Under the pieces are notes generated by a model, which was not told the DNA's origin, ran no database searches, and was given only the letters and a program-made list of their open reading frames with translations. Of a stretch of DNA of 38,811 nt, positions 3,502 through 37,647 are shown one piece after another (within the stretch, counting starts at the first letter, position 1; every line of letters starts with the position of its first letter). This DNA comes from an uncultured Alphaproteobacteria bacterium. GTDB lineage: Bacteria > Pseudomonadota > Alphaproteobacteria > Rickettsiales > UBA1997. The stretch lies in contig CAIOKL010000278.1 in the NCBI GenBank assembly GCA_903858915.1, positions 1 to 38,811 of the forward strand, read 5' to 3'. The translations under genes and the position numbers were made by a program.

Positions 3502-3554
3502 TTTTTAAATAATTCAATTAATTTTTACTAAGTAAAAAACATTTAATTGTTCAA

Positions 3555-20285: not shown

Positions 20286-21665
20286 ATGAATAAATTTATC
20301 GTTTACGGCCTAGGAATTTCAGGGATTTCGACCGCTAAAGCACTTGCCCAAAAAAACTTTGAAGTTACTGCAACCGATGATAATCAAAGGCTAATAGAAG
20401 ATGATGCTCAAAAATACCCAGAAATAAATTTCAAAAACTGTTCTGAAATTTCTTTCGATAAAGACACCAAAATTTCATTTGCTCCCGGAATCCCTCTGCA
20501 CTTCCCAAGGCCACATAAAATTCTCGAAATTTGTCAGAAAACTCAAGCGCAATTATCGTGTGATATTGAAATTTTTTACGAATTAAATCACTTAAATAAT
20601 AATTTTATTGGCATCACGGGAACTAACGGCAAATCAACGACTACAGCCTTAACTGGCTTCATTTTTGAGAACCTAAAAGTGCCATCAAAAATTGGCGGAA
20701 ATATTGGTATTGCTTGCTTCGACTTGCCACAAAATCAAAATAATTTTAACTACATTTTAGAAGTTTCTTCATATCAACTTGATTTGATGAAAAATGTGCG
20801 TTTTAACATCGCATGTCTTTTGAATATTACGCCCGATCACATTGATCGCCACGGCTCTTTTGAAGAATATATTCACTCCAAAAAAAGAATTTTTTTGAAT
20901 CAAAATGCGCAAGATTTTGCCGTAATCGACATTGATAATCCGAACTCCGCAAAAGTTTTTGCAGAATTAAAAAATAATCAAAATTTTCAAGCAAATTTAG
21001 TTGAAATTTCTACCGCAAAAATTCCGCAAAATGGCGTTGCGGTTATTGAAAATAAAGTTTTGGTAAATTTACAAAATCAAAAATTTGAATTTGAAATTAA
21101 TCCAATTTTAAAGGGTAAACATAATCACCAAAATATCGCTTGCGCTATTGCAATTACTTGTTGCTATCTCATTAAAAATGCGCAATTTAATCAACAAAAA
21201 ATTCAACAAATTATTAAAATTATTGAAGAATTTAAAGGCTTAAAACACCGTATGCAATTGGTGGGAGCGGTTGATGGAATTAGCTTTGTCAACGATAGCA
21301 AAGCTACCAATGCCGAATCAACCGAAAACGCATTAAAATCTTATGATAATATTTTTTGGATTTTGGGCGGTAAAGCCAAAGAAGGCGGAATTGAAAGCCT
21401 CAAGCCCTATTTTTCAAAAATTCAAAAAGCTTATTTAATCGGTGAAGCTTCCGATGAATTTGCTAAATTTCTTGCGCAAAATTTCGTAAATTATGAAAAA
21501 TGCCAAACACTTAAAAACGCTTTCGATAAAGCTTTGATCGATGCAAAATCATCAAATTTAATTGAAAAAAACATTATTCTCTCACCCGCATGCGCTTCAT
21601 TTGATCAATGGAAAAATTTTGAAGAGCGCGGTGATTTTTTTTGTAAATTAGTAAATGATATTTAA
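20286..21665 (+). CDS. murD: UDP-N-acetylmuramoylalanine--D-glutamate ligase
   Basis: N-terminal VYGLGISGIS and Mur ligase P-loop GITGTNGKSTT. The ORF-track start at 20274 is TTG; I prefer the ATG at 20286 (MNKFIVYGLG). Confidence 0.92.
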   Translation: MNKFIVYGLGISGISTAKALAQKNFEVTATDDNQRLIEDDAQKYPEINFKNCSEISFDKDTKISFAPGIPLHFPRPHKILEICQKTQAQLSCDIEIFYELNHLNNNFIGITGTNGKSTTTALTGFIFENLKVPSKIGGNIGIACFDLPQNQNNFNYILEVSSYQLDLMKNVRFNIACLLNITPDHIDRHGSFEEYIHSKKRIFLNQNAQDFAVIDIDNPNSAKVFAELKNNQNFQANLVEISTAKIPQNGVAVIENKVLVNLQNQKFEFEINPILKGKHNHQNIACAIAITCCYLIKNAQFNQQKIQQIIKIIEEFKGLKHRMQLVGAVDGISFVNDSKATNAESTENALKSYDNIFWILGGKAKEGGIESLKPYFSKIQKAYLIGEASDEFAKFLAQNFVNYEKCQTLKNAFDKALIDAKSSNLIEKNIILSPACASFDQWKNFEERGDFFCKLVNDI

Positions 21666-24600
21666 AAAAATTTATACATTTTTAAACAGTTACTTCAATG
21701 GAAATAAGCTTTCCAAAGCCCTTTGGACGCTTATTTTTATTTTTACCCTCGCCTTTTCGGGCGTTTTATTTTTTACAGTTAAATCTATTGCGCGAACTGC
21801 AGCTCAACAAGAAGCTATAGCAGAACTTGCTAGTCAGGGGATTATTTACGGCGAAACTGAATGGGAAGCAGAGGAGAGGGAGAGGTTAGCGGCTGAAAAT
21901 GCGAGAATAGCTCAAGCTGCTTCATCTCTAACTTTAACAAATATGAACACCGCGCCAACTGTTAGTTATGTTTCAAGTGGGTTTTCGGTCGATAAAGTAA
22001 ACGAGTTTCATATTTTATATCAAAAACAAGGTCTTCTAGATAATAAAATTTATACTTCATATTTACCTCCCAAAGATACTTTTAACAAAGACACAGGGAC
22101 TGAACACACTCTTGATCCTTGTCTTTATTTGGGTCAGAGTGGACTTAAAATGATCGGAAGAGATTGTATGATCAAAATTCCATTTGACTGCGGAAGCCCT
22201 CCAAATCAAATAACGGCAAAACCGGGCGAAAATTGCCTTTCATATTCGGCCGTATTTAACACCATTTCTGGTGGCAAAAAACTTGATCCAAAAAATTGTT
22301 CCGGTGTTGGCGCTGTAGATAAAACCAATTGCTTATCAACGCAAAGACCTTATTGCCACCTTACTCAAAACCCAATACTTGGAATTAATTGTAGACTTGC
22401 GCCGTGTAATTTAATTCCAAATCATCAATATCGAAGACCCGGAGTTAATTGTTTGGCGGATTGTAATGATATTTCGGGAATCCATATTTCCGAAGCACAA
22501 TTTTTTATGGAAGGTTTTAATTGCTTATCTTCTTGCCGAACTTCTACGCCAAAATCAATTGGGGCAAATTGCGTTTTAGAGTTCAATGATTATGTAATGC
22601 CATTATGTACTGTCATCGATGCAAACACAAAACATTTTAACCTAACCACCGATCAAACTAGAAGAGAGGGATGTTTAGATGTTATCGATTTGCCTCTCTG
22701 CGTAGGTGGTGGCGATCAAGAACTTCAAAATTGTGTTAAAGAATGCAATGCCGTAACTTCTGGTAGTCACAATAAAAATTGTGTTAATTTTGATCAACTA
22801 TCGAGCGCTAAATATAATGGATATGTAAATAAAAAATGCCATAGTTATTTTGACATAACCAGTTTGGGCGCGAATCCAAATTGCACTAAAATCGAATGTG
22901 ATAAACTATCAATTACAGAATTAGCCAGATCTCTTAATATATTTGATGTTACGGAGAATCGAAAATATTGTACTCTTGCAAAATATACAAACTTTAGTAT
23001 CGCTCAATTTTATGCAATAAATTCTATAGAACCTTCTAAAGCCTATCTCAGAGAATATGCTTTGGCGGATAAGCCTTGCTATTCTAGAGGAGATACCGAA
23101 GAAATTGAAACAATTCTCAGTAGCGCTTTTTTTGGTAGCTTCGGTAATACCAAAATTGCATATTTAAAAGCTCACGCCAAGAGTAAATATAGCATTGAAA
23201 ACATTACAGTTTCAGATGAACAAGTTACCAAGGGGCATGCAGATTTTGTTTCAGATTACATTTATGCACCCGAAAGCATGTGCCATGTAGACAACGCCTC
23301 TCAAATGATCTCGTGCGAAAATTATAAAAGAAGCGAAATCCCCACAGCTCCTTACGATTGCAATGCTAAATCTTTTTGTGCGAATTGTCCGCAGACAATA
23401 ACTGGTATTTGCTCTCAAGAATCAGATCAATATTGCTATAAAAATGGCATAAATTGTAATAGTTCAATTAATCAAATTTATCCGGTATGTTCAAGAACTC
23501 TTGTGGCGGAATCTAGACCTACTTCTGACGAATATGTTTCTTGGTTCTTCAGGCCAAATGTTCCGGGGGATGCCATAAAAACTAATAATACTAATACAAC
23601 GACTTCTTTAGCTGCTATGAGTGGTTATCCAACCGAAAGCGTTACTACTAACAATCCTAATGAAACTATCTACATGAATATAGATAATATGAAAGCAAAT
23701 GGATACGGAGCAGACTTCTTAGGATTCGGAGTTAGTCGACGAATAACTCCTCCATCTCAAGGTATGGATATGGGAATTCCCGGTGTTGGAGCTGGATATA
23801 TTTGCGGAATGGGAGGAAATTATCGCGGAGTTCCAAATAATGATTCCGCTTATTTTAGAGGTGAAGTTCAAACCAATTATGAAATGGACGGAAAAGTTTC
23901 GCATGCTGTAGATGTTTGTATTAGATATGCAAGTGGATCCAATGCATTACAAAGTTGTGGATATAGAGACTGTCATAGTTCTTGTGCCTTCGGAATTTGT
24001 ACAAAAATATGTGGAATCGATGTTTGTAGAACTCTAAAAATAGTAGAAGGTCCAAATGTGCCGATTCAAAATTGTGGTTCTAATGATTATAACTTTAGAA
24101 ACGGCAATGGTGCCGAATGTGTTAAAACATACCAAACAAGTCTTGATGCCGTTAGTGAAAATACAAGAGTTAGAATTTATAAACCAGATGCTAGTAATTA
24201 TATATGCGCCGTTCTTGAATTTCATGGTATTACAACGGATCTTCAAACAAACCCATTTTTTAATGGAACGGAATATTTTTCGGTACCAGATCAAAATAAT
24301 AAAGGTGAAGCTAGAAAAATTTGCGTTAGCGGAACTTATGTAAAAAGTTCTGATTCTTGCGTTAATGGTATCGACTCAAATGGTGACAAAGCTAATTCAA
24401 ATACTTGGAGAACTTCCAAAATAATTAAATATATCATGGAGCCGTCGGTCGATAACTATATTGATCAATATGGCATCGGTCCAGTTGATTTAAGTTCAAA
24501 ACATACCGATCCAGAAACCAAAAAAGAAGTTAATCAAACTATTGGTAGAGTTAATTTTAATGTTAAAAGATACTTTGAAACTTCGGATTGTATTAAACAT

Positions 24601-27600
24601 AAACAAAGAATTGGTGCGCCAGTTTACCATTCTGTAGCTACAATTATAAATTCAGAAAGGCTTTTTTTGCCATCTATTATTATTGAAAAAAAATGTAAAA
24701 TTGCATCATTGGGAACTGAGTGTGAAAATGTTGATGAAACTGATTTTTTTAAACCGGCTATTTTAATTTTGTATGGTGGAAAAGATGTTTCTAGCTCAAT
24801 ACTCTCTGATGATCCAAGCACTCTAAACACCAACTACAAAATTCTTAAAATTGATGCTACAGAAAATGTAAGCGCTGATTATATCATAAAAGCTGCTAAT
24901 TTTGGAATTTCGGGAATAGATGTTTCTCAAAGAGTTTTTATTAAAAAAGAATTTTCTGCCTCTCAACCTAAATTATGTTTGTATAAAAAGACTCCTATGG
25001 GAACTAATCCCGAAACATACAAAGAAGACATTATACAATGCGTAAATAGAAAAAGAGCGACTAGAGGTTTGATTCAACCCGCCGTAGTCGTACCAGCTCA
25101 TACCAATCTTTCATTTCAAACGGGCTTTTTAAAAAACGAAGGAGCTTCACATAATTCAATTATTGGAGAATTGCCAAAGCAAGAATTCCAATTTATCAAC
25201 ATGACAACAAATATAAGAAATAAAGAGGATTTAAAAAAATGTATTGATATTACTAGTCAGGGCTTCCCAATTTGCATTCAAAGAGAAGAATGCTCTCTTC
25301 TTAACAATGAATGTGTTGAAAATGAAAAAGCTTTAATTATCGAAAAAAATAGTGCCAATCCACAAATTGGAATTATTCAACAAAAAGAACTTACTAGCAA
25401 TTATTGCAAAAAAGAACTGCTTGCAAAATGTAATTCGAAAAAAGGTTATGCACTTACCGCTTCCAATCAAACTTTAAACACTTCAACAACTCAGGGCGTA
25501 GGTTTTAACGCAGAAAACAATCCCGCATATCACGGTTGGTTTAATGAATTTTGCATTGTAAGTGGCATAGAAAAACTCGATGACCCAGCTTCAAAAGTAT
25601 ATGTACTAACTCAGATTAATACCGATGGGCAATTAGGGTCTTGTATTAAAGATAATAATTGTGCAACTTGTAACGATCTTCGTTGTTTGAAAGCTAGCTG
25701 TTGTGCGATATTAGACGCTACTTTATTAAGCTCTGCGTCAGCTCGATTAGCAACTTCGCACGAACTTGGTTTATGTTATAATCTAGACAGTTATTTAAGA
25801 ACTTGTTCCGCAATTTCATATGGAAAAAATAGCGATATAAGTGATCCATTTTTTATCGGAGAAAGTTATTTAACTAATCCCCATCAATCGCATATAGACA
25901 GATTCAATTCATCGCCTTATCGCAGTTTCAATGCGGAATATGAAGTAGCTTATGCCGGCACCAGTTCTGTAAAAGGAAAATGCGTTGGTTTTTATAAAAA
26001 TGCAATTTCAGATACCGATCCAACGGCGAATTGTAATGCGAATGGAGAATGGGAAGGCTTTACCGAATCCTCATGCACAATGTATACTTGTCCGACTAAA
26101 AAACTGCCATTAGGCAATGGTGGCGCCGATTTAAATGGCGCATATCCTTCAGATTATGATGCGAGTGGAGTGCAACTATCTTCAAAAAGAGGCGTTATTG
26201 ACGGATATGCAAATTGGGAGTCGTTGAAAAAAACCACTATTCAAAAACAACAAGCGACGGCGACTTCATGTATTGTTGGATTTGCCAAAAAAAATGCCTC
26301 ATTTAATTCTAGCCAAATAAGCTTGGCCGAAGTTTCTCCAAGTGTATTACTCTCCTCATTTAATAACTATAAAGCAACTTTAAATCCTGAAGATCAGAAA
26401 GCGATTTTGTCGTTATTTAGCAAAATTAATGGCTATTCGGGCGGAAGCTCTCCAACTAGAAATTGTAATCAGCTTGGTTCTTGGGAATCGGTAACGGATT
26501 CTTGCGAAAGAATAACCTGCCCTCCCATTAAATTTACTGAGTCAGCTGATGCGGGCGCATTTAATTTGAATGATTATGATTTGACAGTAGCTGATTCTTC
26601 AGGTCAAAAAATTATTTATAGTATAAATTCTCCATACGGATCTTCAAGTGGCGACTTACCAACAAAAGCCAAATTTTTAACAAGCGTCGCTATAAATGCT
26701 CCGGCTTATTTATCGGTTACAAACAGCATGGATGCTTATAAATTTTTGATTAAAGATTCGGATGGTGTAAACAATGCCAGCATAGATAGAAATAAAGTTT
26801 ATGTAGTTGAGATTTCTGCGGGTAGTTGGAAAATAATTCCAAACCAAAATGATGATGTTTTAAAAATTTTGTGGCAAAAATCCGGCGGTGCTTCTTTTGA
26901 TAAAGGTTACGCTTTGCGAAGTAATCTATTTGATTACGAACCGACCGATGATCCCAATGATAAACACAGAGTCATTGGAACATGTAATGAAAAAATGGGA
27001 TTTAAATCTTTATCGCAAGAATCTAGACCTCAACTTACATGCGACTCAAGCGGTAATTGGGTAAATCTTTCAAATCCTTGCGTTACTGATTGCGGAGCGA
27101 TTTCCGATCCTGTGGCTAGAAACGCTATTCACGGATTTTCACGGTGGTTAAAATCAACTGCCGTAGTTGGTCAATCGAAAATTGAAACATCTAGTGGTTG
27201 TTCTGCAGGTGGTTATCAGCCATATCCATATACGCCATTATTTGACGAAGAAGGAACAAAAAAAGATTTTGGAATTGGTGCGAACGATAGAGAATTTATT
27301 ACATCCGATAACTTCGATGCTATAACCGTTTCAAATGACGGAGCCAATTTTATTGCGCAAGCTGGAACTGGAGAAAACTTAACTCCGTCGGTGAATAATA
27401 TTGATGGAATTTATTACAATCTTAAAATACAAACCTCGGTTTCCGATGTTCAAACATCCGCTTTCAGCTCAACTCAAGCTGGCGTTCAAACTGTATTTTA
27501 TTTATTTGACAGCGCGCAAAGACTCAGTATGTCTCCTCCTTCTAATGCGGTTTGGTCAAAAATTAATTTCTCAAGTTTCGGCACTCCCGACTATTCCATA

Positions 27601-30600
27601 AAAGGCAATGTTGTTGAAAACGCATCTTGCCGTTCGCCTTATTCTAAATTAATTTTCGCTAATAAATGTATTGGAAAAACTAATTGCTCCGTGGGTTTGT
27701 CTGATTTTACAAATTACGATAGTACCAACACTTGCAACCAAACAAATCCTGGCAATGGAGTAAATGGTGAACAAAATGACACGGTTATTAGCTATGGTTC
27801 GGGCGGTGGCGGTGGCGGTGGCAATAATGCGGGAGCTGGAGGCGCTCCAACGAGTTCAATAAATATAAACGGCATTTCGGGAAGTTCATATTACGATAAA
27901 GCATTTCATGTAACTCCGCCAATTCTATCAAATGCGTTAAATAATGGTGTCAAAGTTGATTTAAAAGTGGCTGATACCGGTCAATTCATCGGCAAAAATG
28001 GTTCGGTTAAAATTATCGAATCAACAACTTCTAGTTTCTCAGCCCCGAGAGAATCTAATTACACTTCACCAGGAGAGAATACTCACACCGTTACAGCGGG
28101 TAGTTCTGGACAAAATATTTATATCAAATATGAAATGAGTGGCGCGGGTGGCGGTGGTGGCGGACCAGGTTTGAATCAAGGAACTGACGGCGCCAGCGGA
28201 ACAAAAATGACCAATGGAGTTTTTGTGGTTAAAAATGGCACTATTTTAAAAATTTATGTCGGCGGTGGCGGTGGCGCTGGTAAAACTAAGTGCATTACTC
28301 CGTCAGGGGGTGGAGCGTTTTTAGATCCTAAACTATTTCAACCAAATAACAATATTTTTGCTTACAAAAAACCCGAAAGCAATTTCCTAGTTAAGGCATT
28401 AAGAGGAATCGGATCGATGTTTATTTCTGAAGGTTGGGCGGCGGCTCAACTAAGTTGTTATTTTTATAATAATGTCTGGTCAGATGGATATAGTCCGATT
28501 CTTGTTAATCAACTCGTTAATACTGGCTCATACTCGGCATTAAAATTAAAATGTTATGGATCTTTATCATTTTGTATATGTAGCACCTTTACATGTTTAA
28601 ATAATATAGAAAATACAACAACTTATAATACACAAATAGATCCAAGCGATACACCAATATCGTTGAGATGCAAAGATGGTTATAGAAATAATGGAGAAGG
28701 ACCAAAACTTACTTGCAAAAGAAATTTAACCAATCCTTCGATAAAAGATGAAATCCCAACTGGGAGTTGCATCGCAAATGAATGTTATCTTGATTCATGG
28801 ACGGGATTTAGCCATGGAACTAATATCGTTGAAGGAGCTGGTGCTCTCAATTGTAGTCCCGGCTATACCGCTAGTACTTCACCGGCACCTGGTTATTATT
28901 GCGGAGCTGATGGTTTGAATCAAGGGATCCGTGCGACACAGGTAGGATCTTGCACTCTAAATTCTTGTACGCTTAGCGGAAGTGCATATTCTAATGCAGG
29001 AAGTGTTTCTGGATCTGGTGCAATTAATTGTAATTCTGGTTATACTGCTAGCACCTCTCCAGCGCCAACTTATGTTTGTAATACAAATAGTGGTCCCGCA
29101 ACAGTTAGTGGATCTTGCACTCCAAATTCTTGTACGCTTAGCGGAAGTGCATATTCTAATGCAGGAAGTGTTTCTGGATCTGGCGCAATTAGTTGTAATT
29201 CTGGCTATACTGCTAGCACCTCTCCATCGCCAACTTATGTTTGTAATACAAATAGTGGTCCCGCAACAGTTAGTGGATCTTGCACTCCAAATTCTTGTAC
29301 GCTTAGCGGAAATGCATTTTCTAATGCAGGAAGTGTTTCTGGATCTGGCGCAATTAGTTGTAATTCTGGCTATACTGCTAGCACCTCTCCATCGCCAAGT
29401 TACTATTGCGCAACAAATAACTCTGCCTCAGATGCTACAATTTTAGGATCTTGCACTCTAATCACTTGTTCTTCTAATGCAATTACTGGATTTTCTAGCA
29501 AAACTATAAATTACACAACAGCAGTTACCTCTGATGTTGCTTGTGATTCCGGTTATTCGGGAACGGTATCTTACGGTCCTTGCACTACTCAAGACGCATC
29601 ATTAACTGTTAATGGAACTTGCACCGCAAACCAACCATGCTCAATTCCTGCTGGAAATGGACATGGAGCGCTTGAGATTGCTCCAACTGGAAGTAGAAGT
29701 GGAAGCATTACTTGCAATGCCGGTTCTGGTTACACTGGTTTGGGCGATTTAGCTTATTCTTGCGGTTCGAGTGCTACACCAAAATATACGGGAAATTGCA
29801 ATTGCGCCGCTGGATATTCTAGAGAAGAAACAAATATAGCAAATAGCGCTTGCAATCCAATTTTTTGCATTGCGGCCATTCCACCGGGCGTGACTCAAAC
29901 AGCAGATACAATAAAAATATCAAAATTTGCAAGTTTTACTACAAATAATGTAAATTTCAATGTTATTTATTTGGATATAAGGCAATTTAATACTGAAAAT
30001 TTTAATAATGCAAATAAAATAACAAAAATTATATTAAACAATTATTTATTAAATGTTACTTTTAGAGCTTCGGATAGGTATAATGTTATGTACAATGTTT
30101 CTAATAATGCAATAGTGGATTTAATAAATTTGAGTGCTATAAAACTTAGTACTATAGATAGTGGTTATTATTATTATAATCTTTCAACGAATGATTCCAC
30201 AGCTTTTATTTTTGGTAAAAGTTTAAATTCTGGTGACACTTCTTTAAGTTGTGATAAAACTGGTTATTTAGGAAGCGTCAATTACAATTGTACAACTAGT
30301 GGATTTTTATTTGCCCTTGGAGCTGCAACGAATGCAACTGATAAGAATTCTTGCCCTTGCGATACCGCTGCTAATAATTATACTAAATTATCAGATGGGA
30401 CTTGCGCTAAAATCGAATGCACCATTAATAGTGGTACTGCGGGATTTGTAAGTGGTACTAAAATTCCTTATAACACCTCAACTTCAACAAAAAATTGCAA
30501 CGATCCGCTTTACAATAATTCTCTGACAGCAGATTTCCCAGCTTGTACTAGCATAGCAAATGTCACTCCCATTGCAAATGGAAATGGATGTCAAAAAATT

Positions 30601-33600
30601 TCTTGCTCAACCACAGGAAAAAATGTAAATGTAACGGATAATACAATATATAGAAAAATTAACTCCGCGGGAGTTGATGAGGAGCAAACTTTAACTTGCG
30701 ACACTGGTTATTCAAATGGAGCATCCACGACAATAAGCGCTAAATGTTTAGCAAATATGGTTAATGGCGTTCCTACTACAGGTGCTTTAAGCAATATTGT
30801 TGGAACTTGCTCCGCAATTACTTGCACTGCGCCTCTGGCGAATGGTTATTCAGCTAAAACTGGCTTACCTTATACCGCCTTAATTGGAGCTGGGACAATA
30901 TCATGCGATACAGCCGGTTATAGCGGAAATGCCAATTACACTTGTCAAACTAAAGATGCCGATGTAACCATTACCAAAACTTGCGATTGCGCCACGGGTT
31001 ATGCTAAAAATGGAAGCGGAGTTTGCGTTAAACCATGTACAATTTCTGATGGAAATGGTTATTTAGGAAAAACAATTAATGCTACAGATTCTAGAACAGG
31101 AACTATTACTTGTGGTGGCACTGGTTATTTTACCACTTCGTTTGTCAACTATTCTTGTGATGATGCCGGAACGCCTACAATAGGTGGAAGTTGCACTTGT
31201 GCTTCTGGCTACGCTAATACCTCCTCTGATAGTGCTTGTAAGGCAATTAAATGTCAAACTAGTGCAACCGGATTTAAGGCGAACACCGAAATTTCTTATA
31301 GTACTTCGGTGGCAAATTACTTTTGTAATGATCCGCTGTATAATAATACCGTAACCACAGCTTTCCCAGCTTGCACTGTTCAAGGAAATTTCCTTTCAGC
31401 AATAGCAACAGATAATTATTGCCTTGCAAATAAAATTTCTTGTTCAACCGCAGGAAAAAATGTAAATGTAGCGGATGATAAAATATATAGAATAATTGAC
31501 GCCACGGGAGTTGATCAAGCGCAATCTTTACTTTGCGCTACGGGTTATTCGAATTCGGGAAGTGCAAATATATCAGCTACATGTATTCCGGAAATGTTTG
31601 ATAGAGGTGGAGTATTAGTTCCGAAAACAGGATCTTTAGCTGTTACTGGCACTTGTAATCTAATTACTTGTTCTGCGCCTCCAATCACAACAGGAATCTC
31701 AAAAAACAAAGGTTACAATCCGCTTAGTTACACGGCGTTACCATATTCAGCGGGAGAAAATAATTCAACAATTGCTTGTTCGGGACCAAATTATAAAGGA
31801 TATGCCGGCTATACTTGTACGGCCTACAATTCATTTGCAACGATTACCTCAAAATGTGCTTGTGGTGATGGTTATTCTGAAAATTCTTACGGAGATTGCG
31901 TTGCAATTGTTTGTTATGCTGATGCTGCCAAAGGATATTTAGCAAAAACCGGCTTAAATTATTCTACAGGATCTGGAACAATTGCTTGTGATCAGACTGG
32001 TTATGGTGGAACTGTTAATTATACTTGTACAGCTAATGGTAAAGTTGGTAGCGTTGAAGTTTGCGGTTGTGCCACTGGTTATGCTAAAGATGCAAACAAA
32101 GATTGCGTTAGAATTACTTGTGATATTCCTGCCGGCAATGGATTTAATGCCGGCAAAATTGAATATACAACAACTCAGTTAAATTATTCTTGTAACGCGA
32201 CAGGTTATCGAACCGATACAACCGCTCTTTTTTCTTGTTCAGATAATGGTGTTAGTACAACGGGGAAACTTGGGACAGGACTTAATTCTTGTCTAAGATT
32301 AACTTGCGATATAGATCGGGGCAATGGGTATTCGGCAAAAAGTGGTTTGTATTATTCTACAACAACTAATGGTTATATAGCATCAAATGGCATATATTCT
32401 TCTACAGGAACTGGAACGATCGCTTGCGATCAAACTGGTTATAGCACTGGAACGATTAGATATATTTGTGAAACTCATGGTCATAAGGCAACTATAGTTA
32501 GTGGTGATTCTTGTGCTTGCGCTCCAAATTATTATAAAGATACATATGGCGCTTGCGTTCCGATGACTTGTACTTCAGACACTGATCCGGTGGTGATAGA
32601 AAAAACAGGAGCGATAGAAACAAAAGATTTGCCAATAACAACAAATGGAACGATAGCTTGCGAAACGACTGCTCACACAGGAACCGCAACTTATACTTGT
32701 TCAGAAGATACAACGCGAACACCTCGTGTTGCGAAAGGAATTTTTACAATTGTCACTCCTTGCGCTTGCAAAACTGGTTATGAAGAGAAAGAGGCTGTTT
32801 GTACGAAAATAAATTGCGGAATATTGGCTTCCACCAGTCCAGGATTTGTAGATACGACAGCTCCTTATAGCGCCATCAAAGTAAATTATTTCTGTAACAA
32901 TCCATTGTATGATAACACTGTTTCTGTTGAATTTCCAGCTTGCACAACTTCTGCAGGAATTAATTATACGCCGAATACTGCAACTTCGCCAGCGACTAAT
33001 GTTTGTAAAAAAATTAGTTGTACAATTCCCGCAGATTATCATGTAACACAAACTTCAATATTCGCTAGCGCTTCTAGTGAAAATTTAATATGCGCTACAG
33101 GTTATTCAAATGGATCATCCACAACAATAAGCGTTAACTGCTCGACGGTAAACGCTCAAAGAACTAATTATGATTTAACAATAAGTAGTGTTCCGAAATC
33201 GGGATCTTTAAATAATAAAAATGGGAGTTGCGCTCGATTAGCTTGCACTGTTCCAGCTGGTTCAAATACAACAAAAGACGGAACCTTGGTAGATTTTACG
33301 GGAGATACCACAACCTCTTTAAATTGCATTACTGGCTATGCCGGATCCCCAACTTATACTTGCAAAGGAACTACTACTGCAGTTTATGCGTCCTCCGGAA
33401 CTCCTTGCGCAAAAATTACTTGCACCGTTCCAACTGGAATTACTGGATTTGATTCTGGTACAACTGGTATAGAATTCGGAACTTTTGATTATTATTGCAA
33501 TACCGAAGGTTTTCAAACTTCCACCAAAGCAAATTTTTCTTGCACTGCTAATTCCACTAATCCAACAACAAGCACTGTAGGTACATTTTCTCAAATCTCC

Positions 33601-36600
33601 AACAGTTGCGCAAGAATTACTTGTTCAGCTGATGCTAACAAAGGTTATTCAGCTAAAACTAACTTACCTTATGCCAAAGATGTACTCGGAACAATTGCTT
33701 GCGCAACGCCTAATTATCAAGGAAATGCAAATTATACCTGCACAACTCATGGCGTAACTGCAACAATCACCTCGGCTTGTCAATGTGGAACGGGCTATGA
33801 AAGAAACGCCTACAATTATTGCGTTCCAATTACTTGTAACATTCCAGCTGGAACGGGTTATACAGCTCACTATAGTTTGGATTATACCGGAGCGGGCGTT
33901 TCACGGGATTTTGATTGTGATACCGAAGGTTATTACGGAAAAGTTTCTTATATATGTCCGGGCGGTGGCGTGCGGGCTACTTATACCGATACTTGCACAA
34001 GAGTAAAATGTAATTTACCGCTTAGCGCCAATTCAAACATCGTACCTACAATGGTAAGTGGAAGTGAATATAGAGAAGTTGATTATTCCGCGACTCCTAG
34101 AGAATACACTTGCGGAAGTGGTTTTAGAAAAACACTTGATCTTAATTATGCACAATTAAATCCTACTTACACATGCGTTAAAAATACTAATCTGGCGCAA
34201 CAAAGTAATCCTTCGACGGTTGCTGTTCAAAATGCTTGCGTTGAAATTACTTGTACCGATCCATACACCAATATTACTTATTCATTTAATGGCGGGCAAC
34301 CTCAAATATTTCCTTGCGATACTTCGCGAGGTCTTTGGGGTGAGTCGGAATTAAACTGTAACGAAGCCGGAATTGTTACTAAGACTAAATCCTGTTATAC
34401 GGTGAAATGTTTAATTCCAGCCGATAAAAACACTTCCAGAGACGGAGCTCTTGTTGATTTTTCGGTTGATTTTTTTGGGCTAGATTGCAAACAAGGTTTT
34501 TATTATGAAAACGCAACTAGACCTAAATATAAATGCATTTACACAGCTAATGAAGCCGTTGTAAATCGTGGAGCGTTGACTTTCGAGGGAACTTGTCAAA
34601 GAATTACTTGTACAATACCGACGGAAGGAATTAACTCATTAAATTCAGTTCTCGATAGCACCAGCGTTAATTGGAATGGCGCTGATTACATTACTACAAG
34701 CTGTAGAGAAGGATTCTATCAATCGAATCTAGCGTTACCTCCTAAATATTCATGTTCGGGAGCTAATCCAATTGGCGAATTGAGAGTCATGAATCCTTGC
34801 GCGCCAGTAACTTGTGATCTTCCTGAGCGCTTTGGAATGTTAGCAAAAACTAATTTAGAATATGGTCAAGGAAAGACTACTAGCTGTAACAAATCAGGGT
34901 ATTTTGGAACCGTTACATATAATTGCGTCACCCCAATTACTTTAGGAAAAGGAGTGACATCGGTGGCCTCCTCAACTTGCGTAGAAGCGTCTTGTGTCGC
35001 AAGTGGAAATGTCGTTGCCACATTTAACACCTTCGTAAGTTCTGGATCAGGTGGAGCGGGTGGAATTGGTGGAAAAATTAGCGACCCAATTGCATTTTTA
35101 AGAGGTGGAAATGGTGGAAATTCAACAACTTCGCGCACCTCTGGTTCGGGCGGTGGCGGTGGTTCAGCTTCAATGATTTCGATCGAAAATAGAATTATCG
35201 CTATAGCTGGCGGTGGCGGTGGCGGAGCTGGTGGCGGTGGAGTTGAAAATGCTACAAACGCTTTAACGAAAATTAGTAATACCGAAGATTTAAATGTCAG
35301 ATTAATTGCCAATGTTTTTGGACCTTATTTTATTGGCGAGATGCAATATTCTCCAATCAACATTACGCCTCAAAAAACTACCGGAATTTTATATAATCAA
35401 GCCTCATATCCAGATCCTTTTTCATTAACAATTCCAGGCGGAACCTTCATTAATGATATTTTCTTTGCTTCATACGGAAGTCCAACAATAGATTTTACAG
35501 CTCCCGAATCTTTGATTTTGAAATATGGAACTTGTAATGATTCAAGTTCGTTAACGCAATCAATCAATCAATGTAGCGGTAAATCATCCTGCATAATCAA
35601 TACTAATTCATTTTCTAGATGCCAATCTGAAGCTTCTAAAAAATTTGGTTTAGTTGCATCTTATTATTATCAAGAGCCAACTCTTCAAGTGATAAACTCA
35701 GCGGGACTTCCTGCTTATAGTTTAAAAGAACGCTACAATAATCAAACTATTCCAGCAACTAATATGAGCAATGGTCAAGTTTATACTTTCTTATTAAACA
35801 AAGAAGATAATATTTGGTTCAAATATCCTTATTTAGCCGATGAATATTTAATCTCAGAAGCTGTTTCTGGTAACAAAATTAAAATTAAATTTCATAGAAC
35901 AAACACCACCTTTTCTCCAAGATTAAAAATTAACGGAATATCTTCTACAATTTCAAAACTAGATGAATCGGGACAGCCTATTTCTCTAAGCGTTGGTTAT
36001 ATTAATCCTACTAAAATTTATATTTTAACTAAATATTCAGATAGGTGGATAATAAGAGAATATATCTCTCAAGAAGTTGCTGGAGCATTGCCGAGTGGAG
36101 AGCGGGTTCCTCCTAGTAGAAGCTGTATGACAAACAAAATCTCTTCGACCGGGGCTGTTAATGTAATGTGGAGTTTACCAAATTCTTCTTGTATAAACAG
36201 ATGTCCAGGATATAACATGAGGGATAACATTGGTGATGATAGAATTGGGGTTGGAGCAACAAAGCATTCAACTTCAGCGGGTGAAGGTATAGTTTATTGG
36301 AGTGATACATTGCCAAACAATTGGAGTTATAAGAAATTTAAATCGAATGTATCCAGTTCTGACGCTAACGGTAGGAAGGTTTTTCAAGAAACTGAAGATA
36401 CTCTTACTCCTTTGAATTTCAGGGAAAATCGTTCGGGACCATATTTTGCATTAGCTAGATTCTGTAATGGAGATGGGTCTTGGAATGCGCCAATTCCACT
36501 TTGTGTTTACAATAATGCAAATTCTACTAATTCTGCCATTACTCCCGTATTGAATGGAACCTCTTATATTTCGGGAGAAAGTCAATCATATCTAAAAGTT

Positions 36601-37647
36601 AATACTGGAGAAGAAGCTATTTCGCAGTGTTTAAGTGGATTTGACAAACAAACGACCGATAGTTATTTAACTGATGGCTCTTCTACATATGAACCGCCTA
36701 AATATAAATGTTTGATGAATAGCAATAATGTGGATCAAACATATTTTGCAGAAGTGAGCGACTCATCAAGAAGGGCATGTGTTAAATATTGCGCCGTTAA
36801 TGATATTGCAGGATCATCTGTTTCTACTGAGAGTAAGAGAGGTATTAAAGTTAGAGCTGGTGGAACAATAGAATTAGAATGCGCTGCAGATTACCTTCCT
36901 CCCATATTGGCAGATGGGACTAGGTCAAATTTAAAGCCATATGCGACTTGCATTAGCGATTATACTGGAACTGTTCTTTGGGCAACGAGTAGTTCTGAAA
37001 CCACAATTGAAAATAAGTGTACATTTGCCAGATCTTGTTATGAATCGAGTTTAACTAAAGATGTTGGTTCTTATACGCGCCAAGCAACTTGGGTAGCAAC
37101 TTGTTGGAAAAGTTCTGCTGACTATTCTGATAAAAGCAACTATTATGATTATAAACAATTCCAGATTGATAATAAAAGTTCACCTTGTCCCGATTCAACA
37201 TATAATTATAAATCTCATGAGCATTATAATGATGAAAATAAGAGTGACTGGTTCCCAGCTAAAAAATTTATTGAATCAAAACATCGATCGGGTTTTGGTA
37301 GTGGTCTAACCCATCCTTTTGTCACCACCGACAGCCAGCATAAAAAATATGGAAAATGTGGATATTGCAAATATGGGGTTGGTTTGTCTTGGTTAGCGGG
37401 TAATGCTCAATGGAATTATGTAAGAAGGTATTTGCAATCATACTCATGTTATGATGGTGCTTGGAGTTTTAATTGGAACAATGTTGATACATCAGAGCGA
37501 AATGCTTGCGATGGCGACAATTGGGATCATCGTGGTTTTTTTGGAGAGAATGGAGAAAATCATCCATCTGAATCGTATCTTGGTGAATGCAAAGGGGACA
37601 GTCAAACTGATACTTTTAATAATTTTAATAACCTTCAAGATTATTAG
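21655..37647 (+). CDS. Giant (5330 aa) membrane-anchored Cys-rich repeat protein with Sushi/CCP-like, EGF-like, SUEL-lectin-like and polyglycine domains; putative surface adhesin or lectin
   Basis: Single uninterrupted frame of 15,993 nt. ATG at 21655 overlaps the murD stop by 11 nt. One N-terminal hydrophobic helix. Periodic cysteine spacing is maintained through the repeat array, which argues for real coding under selection. All other-frame ORFs inside are short shadows. Confidence 0.9.
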   Translation: MIFKKIYTFLNSYFNGNKLSKALWTLIFIFTLAFSGVLFFTVKSIARTAAQQEAIAELASQGIIYGETEWEAEERERLAAENARIAQAASSLTLTNMNTAPTVSYVSSGFSVDKVNEFHILYQKQGLLDNKIYTSYLPPKDTFNKDTGTEHTLDPCLYLGQSGLKMIGRDCMIKIPFDCGSPPNQITAKPGENCLSYSAVFNTISGGKKLDPKNCSGVGAVDKTNCLSTQRPYCHLTQNPILGINCRLAPCNLIPNHQYRRPGVNCLADCNDISGIHISEAQFFMEGFNCLSSCRTSTPKSIGANCVLEFNDYVMPLCTVIDANTKHFNLTTDQTRREGCLDVIDLPLCVGGGDQELQNCVKECNAVTSGSHNKNCVNFDQLSSAKYNGYVNKKCHSYFDITSLGANPNCTKIECDKLSITELARSLNIFDVTENRKYCTLAKYTNFSIAQFYAINSIEPSKAYLREYALADKPCYSRGDTEEIETILSSAFFGSFGNTKIAYLKAHAKSKYSIENITVSDEQVTKGHADFVSDYIYAPESMCHVDNASQMISCENYKRSEIPTAPYDCNAKSFCANCPQTITGICSQESDQYCYKNGINCNSSINQIYPVCSRTLVAESRPTSDEYVSWFFRPNVPGDAIKTNNTNTTTSLAAMSGYPTESVTTNNPNETIYMNIDNMKANGYGADFLGFGVSRRITPPSQGMDMGIPGVGAGYICGMGGNYRGVPNNDSAYFRGEVQTNYEMDGKVSHAVDVCIRYASGSNALQSCGYRDCHSSCAFGICTKICGIDVCRTLKIVEGPNVPIQNCGSNDYNFRNGNGAECVKTYQTSLDAVSENTRVRIYKPDASNYICAVLEFHGITTDLQTNPFFNGTEYFSVPDQNNKGEARKICVSGTYVKSSDSCVNGIDSNGDKANSNTWRTSKIIKYIMEPSVDNYIDQYGIGPVDLSSKHTDPETKKEVNQTIGRVNFNVKRYFETSDCIKHKQRIGAPVYHSVATIINSERLFLPSIIIEKKCKIASLGTECENVDETDFFKPAILILYGGKDVSSSILSDDPSTLNTNYKILKIDATENVSADYIIKAANFGISGIDVSQRVFIKKEFSASQPKLCLYKKTPMGTNPETYKEDIIQCVNRKRATRGLIQPAVVVPAHTNLSFQTGFLKNEGASHNSIIGELPKQEFQFINMTTNIRNKEDLKKCIDITSQGFPICIQREECSLLNNECVENEKALIIEKNSANPQIGIIQQKELTSNYCKKELLAKCNSKKGYALTASNQTLNTSTTQGVGFNAENNPAYHGWFNEFCIVSGIEKLDDPASKVYVLTQINTDGQLGSCIKDNNCATCNDLRCLKASCCAILDATLLSSASARLATSHELGLCYNLDSYLRTCSAISYGKNSDISDPFFIGESYLTNPHQSHIDRFNSSPYRSFNAEYEVAYAGTSSVKGKCVGFYKNAISDTDPTANCNANGEWEGFTESSCTMYTCPTKKLPLGNGGADLNGAYPSDYDASGVQLSSKRGVIDGYANWESLKKTTIQKQQATATSCIVGFAKKNASFNSSQISLAEVSPSVLLSSFNNYKATLNPEDQKAILSLFSKINGYSGGSSPTRNCNQLGSWESVTDSCERITCPPIKFTESADAGAFNLNDYDLTVADSSGQKIIYSINSPYGSSSGDLPTKAKFLTSVAINAPAYLSVTNSMDAYKFLIKDSDGVNNASIDRNKVYVVEISAGSWKIIPNQNDDVLKILWQKSGGASFDKGYALRSNLFDYEPTDDPNDKHRVIGTCNEKMGFKSLSQESRPQLTCDSSGNWVNLSNPCVTDCGAISDPVARNAIHGFSRWLKSTAVVGQSKIETSSGCSAGGYQPYPYTPLFDEEGTKKDFGIGANDREFITSDNFDAITVSNDGANFIAQAGTGENLTPSVNNIDGIYYNLKIQTSVSDVQTSAFSSTQAGVQTVFYLFDSAQRLSMSPPSNAVWSKINFSSFGTPDYSIKGNVVENASCRSPYSKLIFANKCIGKTNCSVGLSDFTNYDSTNTCNQTNPGNGVNGEQNDTVISYGSGGGGGGGNNAGAGGAPTSSININGISGSSYYDKAFHVTPPILSNALNNGVKVDLKVADTGQFIGKNGSVKIIESTTSSFSAPRESNYTSPGENTHTVTAGSSGQNIYIKYEMSGAGGGGGGPGLNQGTDGASGTKMTNGVFVVKNGTILKIYVGGGGGAGKTKCITPSGGGAFLDPKLFQPNNNIFAYKKPESNFLVKALRGIGSMFISEGWAAAQLSCYFYNNVWSDGYSPILVNQLVNTGSYSALKLKCYGSLSFCICSTFTCLNNIENTTTYNTQIDPSDTPISLRCKDGYRNNGEGPKLTCKRNLTNPSIKDEIPTGSCIANECYLDSWTGFSHGTNIVEGAGALNCSPGYTASTSPAPGYYCGADGLNQGIRATQVGSCTLNSCTLSGSAYSNAGSVSGSGAINCNSGYTASTSPAPTYVCNTNSGPATVSGSCTPNSCTLSGSAYSNAGSVSGSGAISCNSGYTASTSPSPTYVCNTNSGPATVSGSCTPNSCTLSGNAFSNAGSVSGSGAISCNSGYTASTSPSPSYYCATNNSASDATILGSCTLITCSSNAITGFSSKTINYTTAVTSDVACDSGYSGTVSYGPCTTQDASLTVNGTCTANQPCSIPAGNGHGALEIAPTGSRSGSITCNAGSGYTGLGDLAYSCGSSATPKYTGNCNCAAGYSREETNIANSACNPIFCIAAIPPGVTQTADTIKISKFASFTTNNVNFNVIYLDIRQFNTENFNNANKITKIILNNYLLNVTFRASDRYNVMYNVSNNAIVDLINLSAIKLSTIDSGYYYYNLSTNDSTAFIFGKSLNSGDTSLSCDKTGYLGSVNYNCTTSGFLFALGAATNATDKNSCPCDTAANNYTKLSDGTCAKIECTINSGTAGFVSGTKIPYNTSTSTKNCNDPLYNNSLTADFPACTSIANVTPIANGNGCQKISCSTTGKNVNVTDNTIYRKINSAGVDEEQTLTCDTGYSNGASTTISAKCLANMVNGVPTTGALSNIVGTCSAITCTAPLANGYSAKTGLPYTALIGAGTISCDTAGYSGNANYTCQTKDADVTITKTCDCATGYAKNGSGVCVKPCTISDGNGYLGKTINATDSRTGTITCGGTGYFTTSFVNYSCDDAGTPTIGGSCTCASGYANTSSDSACKAIKCQTSATGFKANTEISYSTSVANYFCNDPLYNNTVTTAFPACTVQGNFLSAIATDNYCLANKISCSTAGKNVNVADDKIYRIIDATGVDQAQSLLCATGYSNSGSANISATCIPEMFDRGGVLVPKTGSLAVTGTCNLITCSAPPITTGISKNKGYNPLSYTALPYSAGENNSTIACSGPNYKGYAGYTCTAYNSFATITSKCACGDGYSENSYGDCVAIVCYADAAKGYLAKTGLNYSTGSGTIACDQTGYGGTVNYTCTANGKVGSVEVCGCATGYAKDANKDCVRITCDIPAGNGFNAGKIEYTTTQLNYSCNATGYRTDTTALFSCSDNGVSTTGKLGTGLNSCLRLTCDIDRGNGYSAKSGLYYSTTTNGYIASNGIYSSTGTGTIACDQTGYSTGTIRYICETHGHKATIVSGDSCACAPNYYKDTYGACVPMTCTSDTDPVVIEKTGAIETKDLPITTNGTIACETTAHTGTATYTCSEDTTRTPRVAKGIFTIVTPCACKTGYEEKEAVCTKINCGILASTSPGFVDTTAPYSAIKVNYFCNNPLYDNTVSVEFPACTTSAGINYTPNTATSPATNVCKKISCTIPADYHVTQTSIFASASSENLICATGYSNGSSTTISVNCSTVNAQRTNYDLTISSVPKSGSLNNKNGSCARLACTVPAGSNTTKDGTLVDFTGDTTTSLNCITGYAGSPTYTCKGTTTAVYASSGTPCAKITCTVPTGITGFDSGTTGIEFGTFDYYCNTEGFQTSTKANFSCTANSTNPTTSTVGTFSQISNSCARITCSADANKGYSAKTNLPYAKDVLGTIACATPNYQGNANYTCTTHGVTATITSACQCGTGYERNAYNYCVPITCNIPAGTGYTAHYSLDYTGAGVSRDFDCDTEGYYGKVSYICPGGGVRATYTDTCTRVKCNLPLSANSNIVPTMVSGSEYREVDYSATPREYTCGSGFRKTLDLNYAQLNPTYTCVKNTNLAQQSNPSTVAVQNACVEITCTDPYTNITYSFNGGQPQIFPCDTSRGLWGESELNCNEAGIVTKTKSCYTVKCLIPADKNTSRDGALVDFSVDFFGLDCKQGFYYENATRPKYKCIYTANEAVVNRGALTFEGTCQRITCTIPTEGINSLNSVLDSTSVNWNGADYITTSCREGFYQSNLALPPKYSCSGANPIGELRVMNPCAPVTCDLPERFGMLAKTNLEYGQGKTTSCNKSGYFGTVTYNCVTPITLGKGVTSVASSTCVEASCVASGNVVATFNTFVSSGSGGAGGIGGKISDPIAFLRGGNGGNSTTSRTSGSGGGGGSASMISIENRIIAIAGGGGGGAGGGGVENATNALTKISNTEDLNVRLIANVFGPYFIGEMQYSPINITPQKTTGILYNQASYPDPFSLTIPGGTFINDIFFASYGSPTIDFTAPESLILKYGTCNDSSSLTQSINQCSGKSSCIINTNSFSRCQSEASKKFGLVASYYYQEPTLQVINSAGLPAYSLKERYNNQTIPATNMSNGQVYTFLLNKEDNIWFKYPYLADEYLISEAVSGNKIKIKFHRTNTTFSPRLKINGISSTISKLDESGQPISLSVGYINPTKIYILTKYSDRWIIREYISQEVAGALPSGERVPPSRSCMTNKISSTGAVNVMWSLPNSSCINRCPGYNMRDNIGDDRIGVGATKHSTSAGEGIVYWSDTLPNNWSYKKFKSNVSSSDANGRKVFQETEDTLTPLNFRENRSGPYFALARFCNGDGSWNAPIPLCVYNNANSTNSAITPVLNGTSYISGESQSYLKVNTGEEAISQCLSGFDKQTTDSYLTDGSSTYEPPKYKCLMNSNNVDQTYFAEVSDSSRRACVKYCAVNDIAGSSVSTESKRGIKVRAGGTIELECAADYLPPILADGTRSNLKPYATCISDYTGTVLWATSSSETTIENKCTFARSCYESSLTKDVGSYTRQATWVATCWKSSADYSDKSNYYDYKQFQIDNKSSPCPDSTYNYKSHEHYNDENKSDWFPAKKFIESKHRSGFGSGLTHPFVTTDSQHKKYGKCGYCKYGVGLSWLAGNAQWNYVRRYLQSYSCYDGAWSFNWNNVDTSERNACDGDNWDHRGFFGENGENHPSESYLGECKGDSQTDTFNNFNNLQDY
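21718..21780 (+). other. N-terminal transmembrane helix / signal anchor of the giant protein
   Basis: Residues ~22-42 (ALWTLIFIFTLAFSGVLFFTV) preceded by basic residues (KK, K18, K21). No obvious AxA cleavage site follows immediately. Confidence 0.7.
27553..27735 (+). other. SUEL-type (rhamnose/galactose-binding) lectin-like domain 1
   Basis: WSKINFSSFGTPDY...CRSPYSKLIFANKCIGKTNCSVGLSDFTNYDSTNTC matches the I-x-F-A/S-S-F/Y-G-x-P ... C-x-G-K-x-x-C-x-V ... F...C pattern of Gal_Lectin/SUEL domains. Confidence 0.6.
27796..28320 (+). other. Polyglycine (ALK/LTK-type glycine-rich) domain 1
   Basis: GSGGGGGGGNNAGAGGAP ... YTSPGENTHTVTAGSSGQNIYIKYEMSGAGGGGGGPG..GTDGASG...NGTILKIYVGGGGGAGKT. Beta-strand / Gly-run alternation as in bacterial and phage glycine-rich-domain proteins. 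Encoded partly by (GGCGGT)n hexanucleotide runs. Confidence 0.55.
28945..29439 (+). repeat. Three near-identical in-frame 165-nt (55-aa) tandem repeats
   Basis: The GGATCTTGCACTC... unit restarts at 28945, 29110 and 29275 (exact 165-nt period) with only a handful of substitutions. Encodes GSCTxNSCTLSGSAYSNAGSVSGSGAI(N/S)CNSGYTASTSP(A/S)PTYVCNTNSGPATVS. Confidence 0.95.
30418..32121 (+). repeat. Higher-order (four-module) repeat, two full units of about 834 and 870 nt
   Basis: Unit starts at KIEC (30418) and AIKC (31252). Collinear landmarks are YxCNDPLYNN..FPACT, KISCSTxGKNVNVxDxxIYRxI..GVDxxQxLxCxTGYSN, then two Sushi-like+EGF-like pairs. The best DNA stretch is roughly 85-90% identical by eye. 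Confidence 0.8.
32814..33246 (+). repeat. Partial third copy (first two modules) of the higher-order repeat
   Basis: KINC...YFCNNPLYDNTVSVEFPACT...KKISCTIP...LICATGYSNGSSTTISVNC repeats the first two module types of the 30418/31252 units. Confidence 0.7.
34996..35250 (+). other. Polyglycine (glycine-rich) domain 2
   Basis: FVSSGSGGAGGIGGK...RGGNGGNS...SGSGGGGGSASMISIENRIIAIAGGGGGGAGGGG. Same strand / Gly-run alternation as domain 1. Confidence 0.55.
35437..35670 (+). other. SUEL-type lectin-like domain 2
   Basis: GGTFINDIFFASYGSPTIDF...KYGTCNDSSSLTQSINQCSGKSSCIINTNSFSRCQSEASKKFGLVASYYY closely follows the FASFG-x-P...G-x-C...C-x-G-K-x-S-C-x-(V/I)...F...C...K-x-L-x-V pattern of SUEL domains, for example at the C-terminus of plant beta-galactosidases. 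Confidence 0.65.

Follow-up and report, generated by a model that had tools for sequence, protein, structure and literature searches.

A giant cysteine-rich protein with CCP-like modules and lectin-type domains is a candidate attachment fibre of freshwater Rickettsiales

Introduction

Giant adhesins of Gram-negative bacteria, such as the RTX adhesins MpIBP/LapA, FhaB and the inverse autotransporters intimin/invasin, combine great size with conserved ends, an extender of variable repeat number and lectin-type domains near the ends. For epibiotic Rickettsiales, the attachment factors put forward so far are FhaB-type exoproteins and type IV pili (PMC9352585, PMC10847448). FhaB-type adhesins have been proposed for Deianiraea and Gamibacteraceae (PMC9352585), and in the discussion of adhesion in Gamibacteraceae and Deianiraeaceae only FhaB/two-partner secretion (TPS) exoproteins and type IV pili appear (PMC9352585, PMC10847448). 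Here we describe a giant gene in a 38,811-nt stretch of contig CAIOKL010000278.1 (the window, meaning the whole stretch analysed), whose 5,330-aa product shares the size, conserved ends, variable extender and near-terminal lectin-type domains of these adhesins. It differs from them in that its extender consists of predicted disulfide-bonded modules of the complement control protein (CCP, or Sushi) type instead of Ig-like or beta-helix repeats, and none of their secretion or repeat modules was found in it.

The lineage to which the window is closest, family UBA1997, is restricted to freshwater and enriched in amino-acid biosynthesis, and its cells have been seen by CARD-FISH (fluorescence in situ hybridization with catalysed reporter deposition) as small rods that associate persistently with the surface of cryptophyte algae (preprint, 10.1101/2023.01.31.526412). 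The word 'giant' is absent from that preprint and from PMC9352585 and PMC10847448, and the strings 'Sushi', 'cysteine' and 'adhesi' are absent from the preprint. The family is undescribed so far: in the library searched, no paper on the giant protein, PF21722 or bacterial sushi adhesins gives an account of it.

Several module types in the protein have a better-known counterpart. Like the array of the giant protein, metazoan and viral CCP arrays (factor H, CR1, CD55, CD46, Crry and beta2-glycoprotein I) consist of four-Cys modules of ~50-75 aa that are joined by 4-aa linkers, start with C-x-x-P and have C-x2-G-[YF]...Y-x-C as their core. The modules of the giant protein, however, lack the hallmark Trp of these arrays, and about one-third of them carry an extra C-x-C...C tail; their setting is also different, with a bacterial host and an array placed between lectin/glycine-rich pairs and unfamiliar N- and C-terminal regions. 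The SUEL-lectin-like domains have the FxSFGTP...C...C.G...C motif in common with a plant SUEL-type domain (PDB 5iaz, the C-terminal domain of rice beta-galactosidase 1) and contain four cysteines, in contrast to the eight of animal rhamnose-binding lectins. The glycine-rich domain resembles Gly_rich_2 and ALK/LTK domains in its poly-Gly runs alternating with beta strands (GxGGGGGG ... G..L.I.VGGGG.AG). Such modules are very unusual for bacteria.

Results

An intact giant gene at a conserved locus

The giant gene (21655..37647, + strand) covers 15,993 of the 38,811 nt of the window (41%) and encodes a protein of 568.5 kDa with 252 Cys (4.7%), a pI of 5.9 and abundant Ser, Thr, Gly and Asn. It starts with ATG, its translation contains zero internal stops, and the second-largest ORF (open reading frame) in a six-frame list of ORFs of at least 100 aa measures 529 aa. 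An earlier note, made from the letters of this DNA, had singled out one intact 5,330-aa ORF filling 41% of the window, and this description holds. Of 17 homologs aligned, 15 have nearly the same N-terminal sequence, MIFKKIYTFLN, and this near-invariance validates the start codon. The G+C fraction of the gene (0.33-0.40) is continuous with that of its flanks (0.31-0.375). Recent horizontal acquisition, considered as an origin of the gene, is unsupported, as its G+C content is native and its locus deeply syntenic.

One stretch of the gene, at 28945-29402 (+ strand), is a near-identical tandem duplication of a single CCP-like module (165 nt x 2.8 copies, 97% DNA identity). All modules outside it are 64-85% identical at the DNA level, and concern about assembly collapse is therefore limited to the copy number of this one array. 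A higher-order DNA period of ~837 nt, equal to four modules, also runs through the larger array. The 165-nt duplication is a recent expansion, and the assembly may give its number of copies wrongly.

With aa 1-5000 as the query, a word-indexed search through 5.8 billion proteins returned 18 relatives, which are 3.7-4.9 kaa long and 31-58% identical to the giant protein. They are all without a name: the members of their clusters are annotated 'hypothetical protein', in agreement with the earlier note, which had placed the protein in no described family. All 18 full-length relatives lie at the same murD-X-purE locus. At least 18 metagenome-assembled genomes (MAGs), from genomes of ~1.5 Mb, keep intact ORFs of 11-16 kb at one locus, and purifying selection on the family is evident.

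The ends and the middle of the protein differ in conservation. For every relative the N- and C-terminal thirds can be aligned over their full length, with 58% identity to the nearest relative in the N-terminal part and 45% in the C-terminal part; in the middle, alignment is limited to the repeats, with 22-31% identity. The window protein is ~1,000 aa longer than most relatives and has 37 C-x4-C linkers over its whole length, versus 15-23 in relatives. This additional length is explained by the repeated four-module block together with the 97%-identical triple module. Conserved ends joined by a variable extender are the pattern of surface fibres and, as anchor, extender and tip, of giant adhesins.

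A scan of one genome per GTDB species yielded 19 loci, all in MAGs from lakes or other aquatic sources that either have Rickettsiales or Alphaproteobacteria in their titles or are obviously mislabelled; one is named Rickettsiales bacterium UBA1997. The records of five public MAGs (L006, L015, L021, L016 and L018) go under 'Rickettsia typhi', 'uncultured Rhizobium sp.' or 'Rhizobiaceae', which their gene content and lake origin evidently mark as taxonomic mislabels. Housekeeping genes of the window are 84-97% identical to their counterparts in the closest MAGs. The host is a host-associated Rickettsiales lineage with a reduced genome, and not the free-living streamlined bacterium that had been assumed for the window.

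An array of CCP-like modules

The middle of the protein (aa 2314-4442; 28594..34980, + strand) is an array of about 31 modules of 48-84 aa. Each contains four Cys, or six in ten modules, with the spacing C1-(21-40)-C2-(12-21)-C3-(12-30)-C4 followed by a 4-aa linker; in many modules C-x-[IVL]-P stands at the start and C-x2-G-[YF]...Y-x-C near the centre. This agrees with the usual layout of CCP/Sushi proteins, in which modules of about 60 aa have four Cys at characteristic spacing and follow each other across linkers of 3-8 aa. Within aa 2260-4450 there are 28 C-x4-C linkers, versus 9.3 in shuffled sequences (maximum 19). The even number of Cys per module (four or six) is typical of extracytoplasmic, disulfide-bonded domains.

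Modules with six Cys finish in C-x-C-x2-G-Y-x4-8-C, and about a third of all modules bear such an EGF-signature tail. The pattern C-x-C-x2-[GP]-[FYW]-x4-8-C, the PROSITE EGF_1 signature, has six strict matches in aa 2260-4450, compared with 0.03 in shuffles. Of an EGF-like domain, which has six Cys within ~30-40 aa, it corresponds to the C-terminal hairpin alone, and it shares C4 of the CCP-like module; no Pfam EGF family matched the halves or segments of the giant protein.

Among the 30 PDB matches listed for a 14-sequence profile of aa 3986-4446, every one of the 29 with E <= 0.05 is a CCP-module protein: CD55 leads (3.8e-8, aligned in register across three modules), followed by CR1, beta2-glycoprotein I, C1s, factor H, C2, MASP and C4BP. 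AlphaFold 2 models the seven modules of this segment as all-beta with a mean pLDDT (predicted local distance difference test) of 86.2. The credible Foldseek matches of the model are factor H (E 1.2e-3), Crry (probability 0.99), CD55 (0.98) and CD46 (0.77); no match reached E <= 1e-3 and TM-scores were low, as expected for an elongated chain. Pfam Sushi matches 3 of 14 homolog array segments (best E 9.2e-6). Only 3 Trp occur in the 2,129 aa of the array, and the conserved CCP Trp between C3 and C4 is missing. On this sequence and model evidence, the array is best described as a series of divergent CCP-like modules, close to the roughly 30 Sushi-like modules with EGF-like hairpins that the earlier note had seen.

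One further module holds a 128-aa Cys-free insert (aa 2738-2866; 29866-30249; FNVIYLDIRQFNTENFNN...) that is Asn/Ile-rich and has no family match; it could be an inserted domain.

SUEL-lectin-like and glycine-rich domains

Two SUEL-lectin-like domains, each paired with a glycine-rich segment, flank the array in mirror order. The first, SUEL domain 1 (aa 1966-2030; 27550..27744, + strand), resembles SUEL/rhamnose-binding lectins by Pfam, profile and Foldseek. Pfam SUEL_Lectin (PF02140) matches the corresponding segment in 16 of 16 homologs (best 3.6e-7), and a family profile aligns in the PDB with 5iaz (1.7e-6), salmon CSL3 (0.011) and the lectin domain of latrophilin-like protein 1 (LAT-1; 0.79). 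The AlphaFold 2 model of this domain is poor (pLDDT 38-74; 57 overall for the model of SUEL domain 1 with glycine-rich domain 1). In this low-pLDDT region the best Foldseek neighbours in the PDB are latrophilin Lec domains (probability 0.97-1.0, E 0.08-0.3), and the best viral neighbours are annotated as SUEL-lectin proteins (probability 0.90-1.0, E 5.4e-3 and 1.6e-2). SUEL domain 2 (aa ~4594-4660; 35434..35634, + strand) scores 18.7-19.5 bits in Pfam, under the gathering cut-off of 31.4, and SUEL_Lectin matches 4 of 6 homologs at this position. Comparison of the two domains by hhalign (probability 96%, E 4e-9) shows that they are mutually homologous. The paired domains in mirror order had been noticed before from the sequence and are upheld by Pfam in homologs, profiles and hhalign.

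Glycine-rich domain 1 (aa 2033-2215; 27751..28299, + strand) is a beta domain with three poly-Gly runs, probably of the Gly_rich_2 type, which receptor-binding proteins of viruses and phages also have. PF21722 (Gly_rich_2) matches 11 of 16 homolog segments (best 9.6e-7), with the window copy unmatched, and a protein search with the SUEL plus glycine-rich segment found two fragments, P0102 and P0103, both with precomputed PF21722 assignments; NCBIfam gave no match on the same segment. A few homologs show weak PHROGs matches to phage tail-fibre or minor-tail proteins. The beta core is modelled at pLDDT 70-92, with low confidence in the poly-Gly stretches, and has no structural neighbour in the PDB or BFVD. 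An ALK/LTK identity, which had been suggested for the glycine-rich domains, is not supported: ALK_LTK_GRD (PF12810) matches 1 of 16 homologs (0.0044) and not the window copy, and the Foldseek top 50 contain no ALK or LTK. Glycine-rich segment 2 (aa ~4465-4530; 35047..35244, + strand) could be assigned to no family, matching no Pfam entry, PF21722 and ALK_LTK_GRD included.

A conserved core that also occurs alone

The N-terminal core (aa ~115-1940; 21997..27474, + strand), with 80 Cys of which dozens are invariant, is the best-conserved part of the giant protein and is unassigned to a family. Pfam searches of two halves and ten segments returned nothing at aa 100-1400, 2740-4450 or 4800-5330. 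Against the PDB, a profile of aa 1-2260 found nothing beyond the SUEL domain, and one of aa 1300-1945 gave weak matches alone (E > 0.08). The only Pfam family above threshold in the core is Ephrin_CRD (33.4 bits for the segment aa 1400-1960 versus a cut-off of 27), in two short stretches; at the better of these, aa 1437-1474 (25963..26076, + strand), it marks a Sushi-like half-module that also aligns weakly with a half-module of CD55. The sushi-like module with a CxC..GY...C hairpin after it recalls the sushi-EGF pair of the Eph-receptor Cys-rich domain (PF25599); the difference is that only a half-module of ~35 aa aligns and that the giant protein has no ligand-binding/FN3 context.

When aa 115-1040 were used in an exhaustive hidden Markov model search, 1.84 billion cluster representatives yielded just 79 proteins, 76 of them at E <= 1e-10, in two size classes: a long form of 3.6-4.3 kaa and a short form of ~1.8-2.5 kaa. 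Distant lake MAGs (L012-L023; for example L014, 9869-15889) carry a ~2,000-aa homolog that covers the N-terminal core alone, without the lectin, glycine-rich and CCP parts and without any poly-Gly run. It sits between the MurD-like and purE genes, or just after purE in L020 and L024. Because these distant MAGs have the core alone at the same locus, the core is ancestral, and the part beyond aa ~1940 is an extension specific to the long-form clade.

The C-terminal region (aa 4690-5330; 35722..37644, + strand) is conserved and contains beta-rich stretches, CCP-like motifs with endings recognizable by eye (C..dG.W....P.C) and a Trp/Tyr/Cys-rich tail; it matched no PDB entry by profile search and no known Pfam family. 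Sushi-like modules had been proposed before SUEL domain 1 and after SUEL domain 2 as well. Their motifs, the Ephrin_CRD score and the weak profile matches remain in favour, but hhalign against the CCP-array profile gives probabilities of 0.1% for the core, 15% for aa 1300-1945 and 1% for the C-terminal region, and the flanking modules are thus not statistically tied to the array. By these comparisons, the N-terminal ~1,900 aa and the C-terminal ~640 aa are without known relatives.

The N-terminal signal

The protein begins with a putative export signal (aa 1-46; 21655..21792, + strand), recognized from hydropathy and homolog N-termini, whose hydrophobic core at aa 23-42 is the sole hydrophobic segment in all 5,330 aa. 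A possible cleavage site in the window protein follows SIA. In most homologs the hydrophobic core spans just 13-17 residues, after which comes VSA, SNA, FA-Q or IA-Q, and for this reason we read the N-terminus as a cleavable Sec signal. It looks more like a long signal peptide, although an uncleaved signal anchor is possible in the window sequence. Where the earlier note had a transmembrane anchor, the single hydrophobic segment therefore stands and the anchor is unconfirmed.

A conserved 21-aa extension, MIFKKIYTFLN.YFNGNK (aa 1-21; 21655-21717), precedes the hydrophobic core. The extended signal peptide region (ESPR) was considered for it and rejected, since the Pfam ESPR model has no match on the first 60 aa. 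These 21 residues are more conserved than most of the giant protein, which suggests a specific targeting or translation-coupling role.

Neighbouring genes

Upstream, a gene for a MurD-like Mur ligase (20274..21665, + strand) overlaps the start of the giant gene by 11 nt at its stop; downstream, purE (37693..38175, + strand) follows 45 nt beyond it. Both are syntenic in all relatives, and five relative contigs, one of them 1.52 Mb long, have the identical order purM(-), MurD-like, giant gene, purE, a 62-aa ORF and an ORF of ~123 aa. Other genes in the window include lpxB, asd, argB, a bioD-like gene, a T2SS-F/PilC-type gene, def, purN, purQ, purC and tyrS, and, upstream of the giant gene and ending with the MurD-like ligase, murE-like, mraY, leuA, HAD hydrolase, cytochrome-c-assembly, transglutaminase-like and purM genes. 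Spacers throughout the window had been described as 0-25 nt; several in fact measure 150-270 nt (18759->18949, 20088->20274, 7217->7486). In the relatives' contigs, genes for ankyrin-repeat proteins, VirB3 and LptD lie near the giant gene. LptD, which occurs in L003, and lpxB of the window point to an outer membrane.

Three amino-acid biosynthesis genes, leuA (13976-15565, + strand), argB (2536-3501, - strand) and asd (1372-2385, + strand), are unusual for classical Rickettsiales and fit the published enrichment of UBA1997 in this function. Among the housekeeping genes lies a GspF/PilC-type platform gene (4175-5371, - strand; Pfam T2SSF, two repeats), which implies that the reduced genome encodes a machine for type II secretion or type IV pili. 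Such a machine could bear on the export of folded disulfide-rich proteins or on attachment; nothing links the gene to the giant protein. Two genes upstream of the giant gene, a 444-aa transglutaminase-core protein is encoded at 17425-18759 (- strand) and occupies the same position in long-form relatives (49-89% identity). It may conceivably crosslink or proteolyse the giant protein.

Two overlapping small ORFs follow purE on the + strand, at 38239-38427 (62 aa) and 38414-38785 (123 aa), and neither has a Pfam family. The 123-aa ORF, whose C-terminal half is hydrophobic, is conserved after purE in every long-form locus that reaches far enough (56-97% identity), with a 60-64-aa ORF just upstream in five relative contigs.

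Discussion

From the ORF, its domain types, the conservation and synteny of the family and its taxon, we infer a surface-exposed adhesin together with the nature of its ligand and host. We propose that the giant protein is a host-attachment fibre of epibiotic Rickettsiales, Sec-exported, disulfide-bonded and arranged as beads on a string, and we put the probability of this reading at about 0.5. The long N-terminal signal would carry the chain across the inner membrane, with oxidative folding to follow. The ancestral Cys-rich core of ~1,900 aa would stay cell-proximal at the envelope, and the ~31 CCP-like modules would form a semi-rigid stalk. A CCP module spans ~3.5-4 nm in factor H, and from such dimensions the stalk may be of the order of 100 nm long, its length differing from lineage to lineage as modules duplicate. 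Both SUEL-lectin-like domains, the glycine-rich domains and the C-terminal tip would then bind glycans or proteins on the surface or periplast of a eukaryotic, probably algal, partner. Adhesion to eukaryotic cells through glycans had been guessed in the earlier note, and the host-associated context strengthens that guess, which is still one of inference.

Several observations weigh against this proposal. The Pfam families invoked for it are matched by homologs but not by the window's own copies, which stay below gathering scores: Sushi (PF00084) reaches 19.2 bits at best versus a threshold of 20.7, with no match in the segments, and SUEL domain 1 reaches 25.7-25.8 bits, under 31.4. The closest solved relative of that domain, 5iaz, is not known to bind sugar. 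The short form occupies the same locus without lectins or stalk, and so the ancestral function need not have been lectin-mediated adhesion. Placement in a UBA1997-like lineage is a matter of similarity to MAGs rather than of phylogeny. Export raises a further difficulty. The giant protein has no GGxGxD RTX repeats, no C-terminus of the type 1 secretion system kind and no LPXTG motif, and Pfam detected no autotransporter barrel, TPS domain or ESPR in its segments; no recognizable route across the outer membrane was found in it. Type 1 and type 5 secretion handle folded disulfide-rich chains poorly, and because the number of Cys, 252, points to periplasmic oxidative folding, the protein does not suit either system.

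The absence of a recognizable outer-membrane translocation module in the protein also fits a structural envelope protein, be it a scaffold in the periplasm or on the outer surface or a coat that protects the cell (S-layer-like or glycocalyx-organizing), instead of a host-specific adhesin. The essential function in the envelope would then lie with the N-terminal core, and the coat would be decorated or made thicker by the CCP/lectin extension. The 11-nt overlap with a Mur ligase gene at a locus conserved across deep lineages favours such a role, as do the retention of a lectin-less short form there and the possible N-terminal signal anchor. The adjacency of genes in reduced Rickettsiales genomes, however, is often a matter of frozen synteny and not of a function in common, and Pfam detected no peptidoglycan-binding or S-layer domain. 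A CCP rod of ~100 nm with lectin domains would moreover be hard to accommodate in a periplasm, and variable stalk length with recent module duplication is typical of outward-facing proteins; on balance we regard an envelope scaffold or coat as unlikely, if by no means far-fetched. An outward-facing protein might also serve without any specific eukaryotic host, as a shed or surface decoy or shield against phages or grazers, or as an agglutinin that captures particles or bacteria. Lectin-type and tail-fibre-like glycine-rich domains are generic binders of glycans and receptors, and the middle of the protein evolves fast and varies in length. The strong conservation of the N- and C-terminal regions over 31-58% identity nevertheless argues against pure arms-race evolution, and the lineage is known from the surface of algal cells, which makes this explanation decidedly improbable.

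Host mimicry, in which a CCP array taken from a eukaryote or virus interferes with a complement-like or self-recognition system, is suggested by the array's sequence matches in the PDB, where every significant one is a complement regulator. These matches reflect the CCP fold and not orthology; the hallmark Trp is missing and scores lie under Pfam thresholds; the likely hosts are protists without complement, the G+C content is native and the locus is vertically inherited, so that we give mimicry hardly any weight. Nor do we set much store by an artefact, be it an assembly that is chimeric or has collapsed or a pseudogene in decay that was taken for one ORF. Short-read assembly could have miscounted the 165-nt repeat of 97% identity, and the window protein does extend ~1,000 aa beyond most relatives, but its 15,993 nt are free of stops and the order of N-terminal core, SUEL-glycine-rich pair, array, glycine-rich-SUEL pair and tail recurs in 18 independent assemblies, one on a contig of 1.52 Mb. 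The other repeats are too diverged to collapse, and the ~837-nt four-module super-repeat accounts for the extra length.

How Rickettsiales first associated physically with eukaryotic cells is an open question, and the epibiotic freshwater lineages (UBA1997, Gamibacteraceae and Deianiraea-like bacteria) are its best living models. A gene that takes up ~1% of a ~1.5-Mb genome, is strictly syntenic and combines lectin-type domains with a long CCP stalk offers a concrete and testable attachment candidate for them. A long CCP-type array in a bacterium is a rare case, the exit of a 570-kDa protein with 252 Cys from a diderm cell is a puzzle, and of 1.84 billion representative clusters just 79 contain relatives of the core region of ~1,900 aa. 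Tentatively, and with less assurance than for the attachment fibre itself, the family may represent the dedicated host-attachment organelle of epibiotic Rickettsiales beside the intracellular ones, and the first bacterial fibre with paired lectin heads on a long CCP stalk. Its core might then be a new way to export or anchor a giant disulfide-bonded protein in a diderm, and the family would record how attachment to eukaryotic cells was built up before intracellularity, in a history that led from the core to the core with stalk and lectins and on to module expansion.

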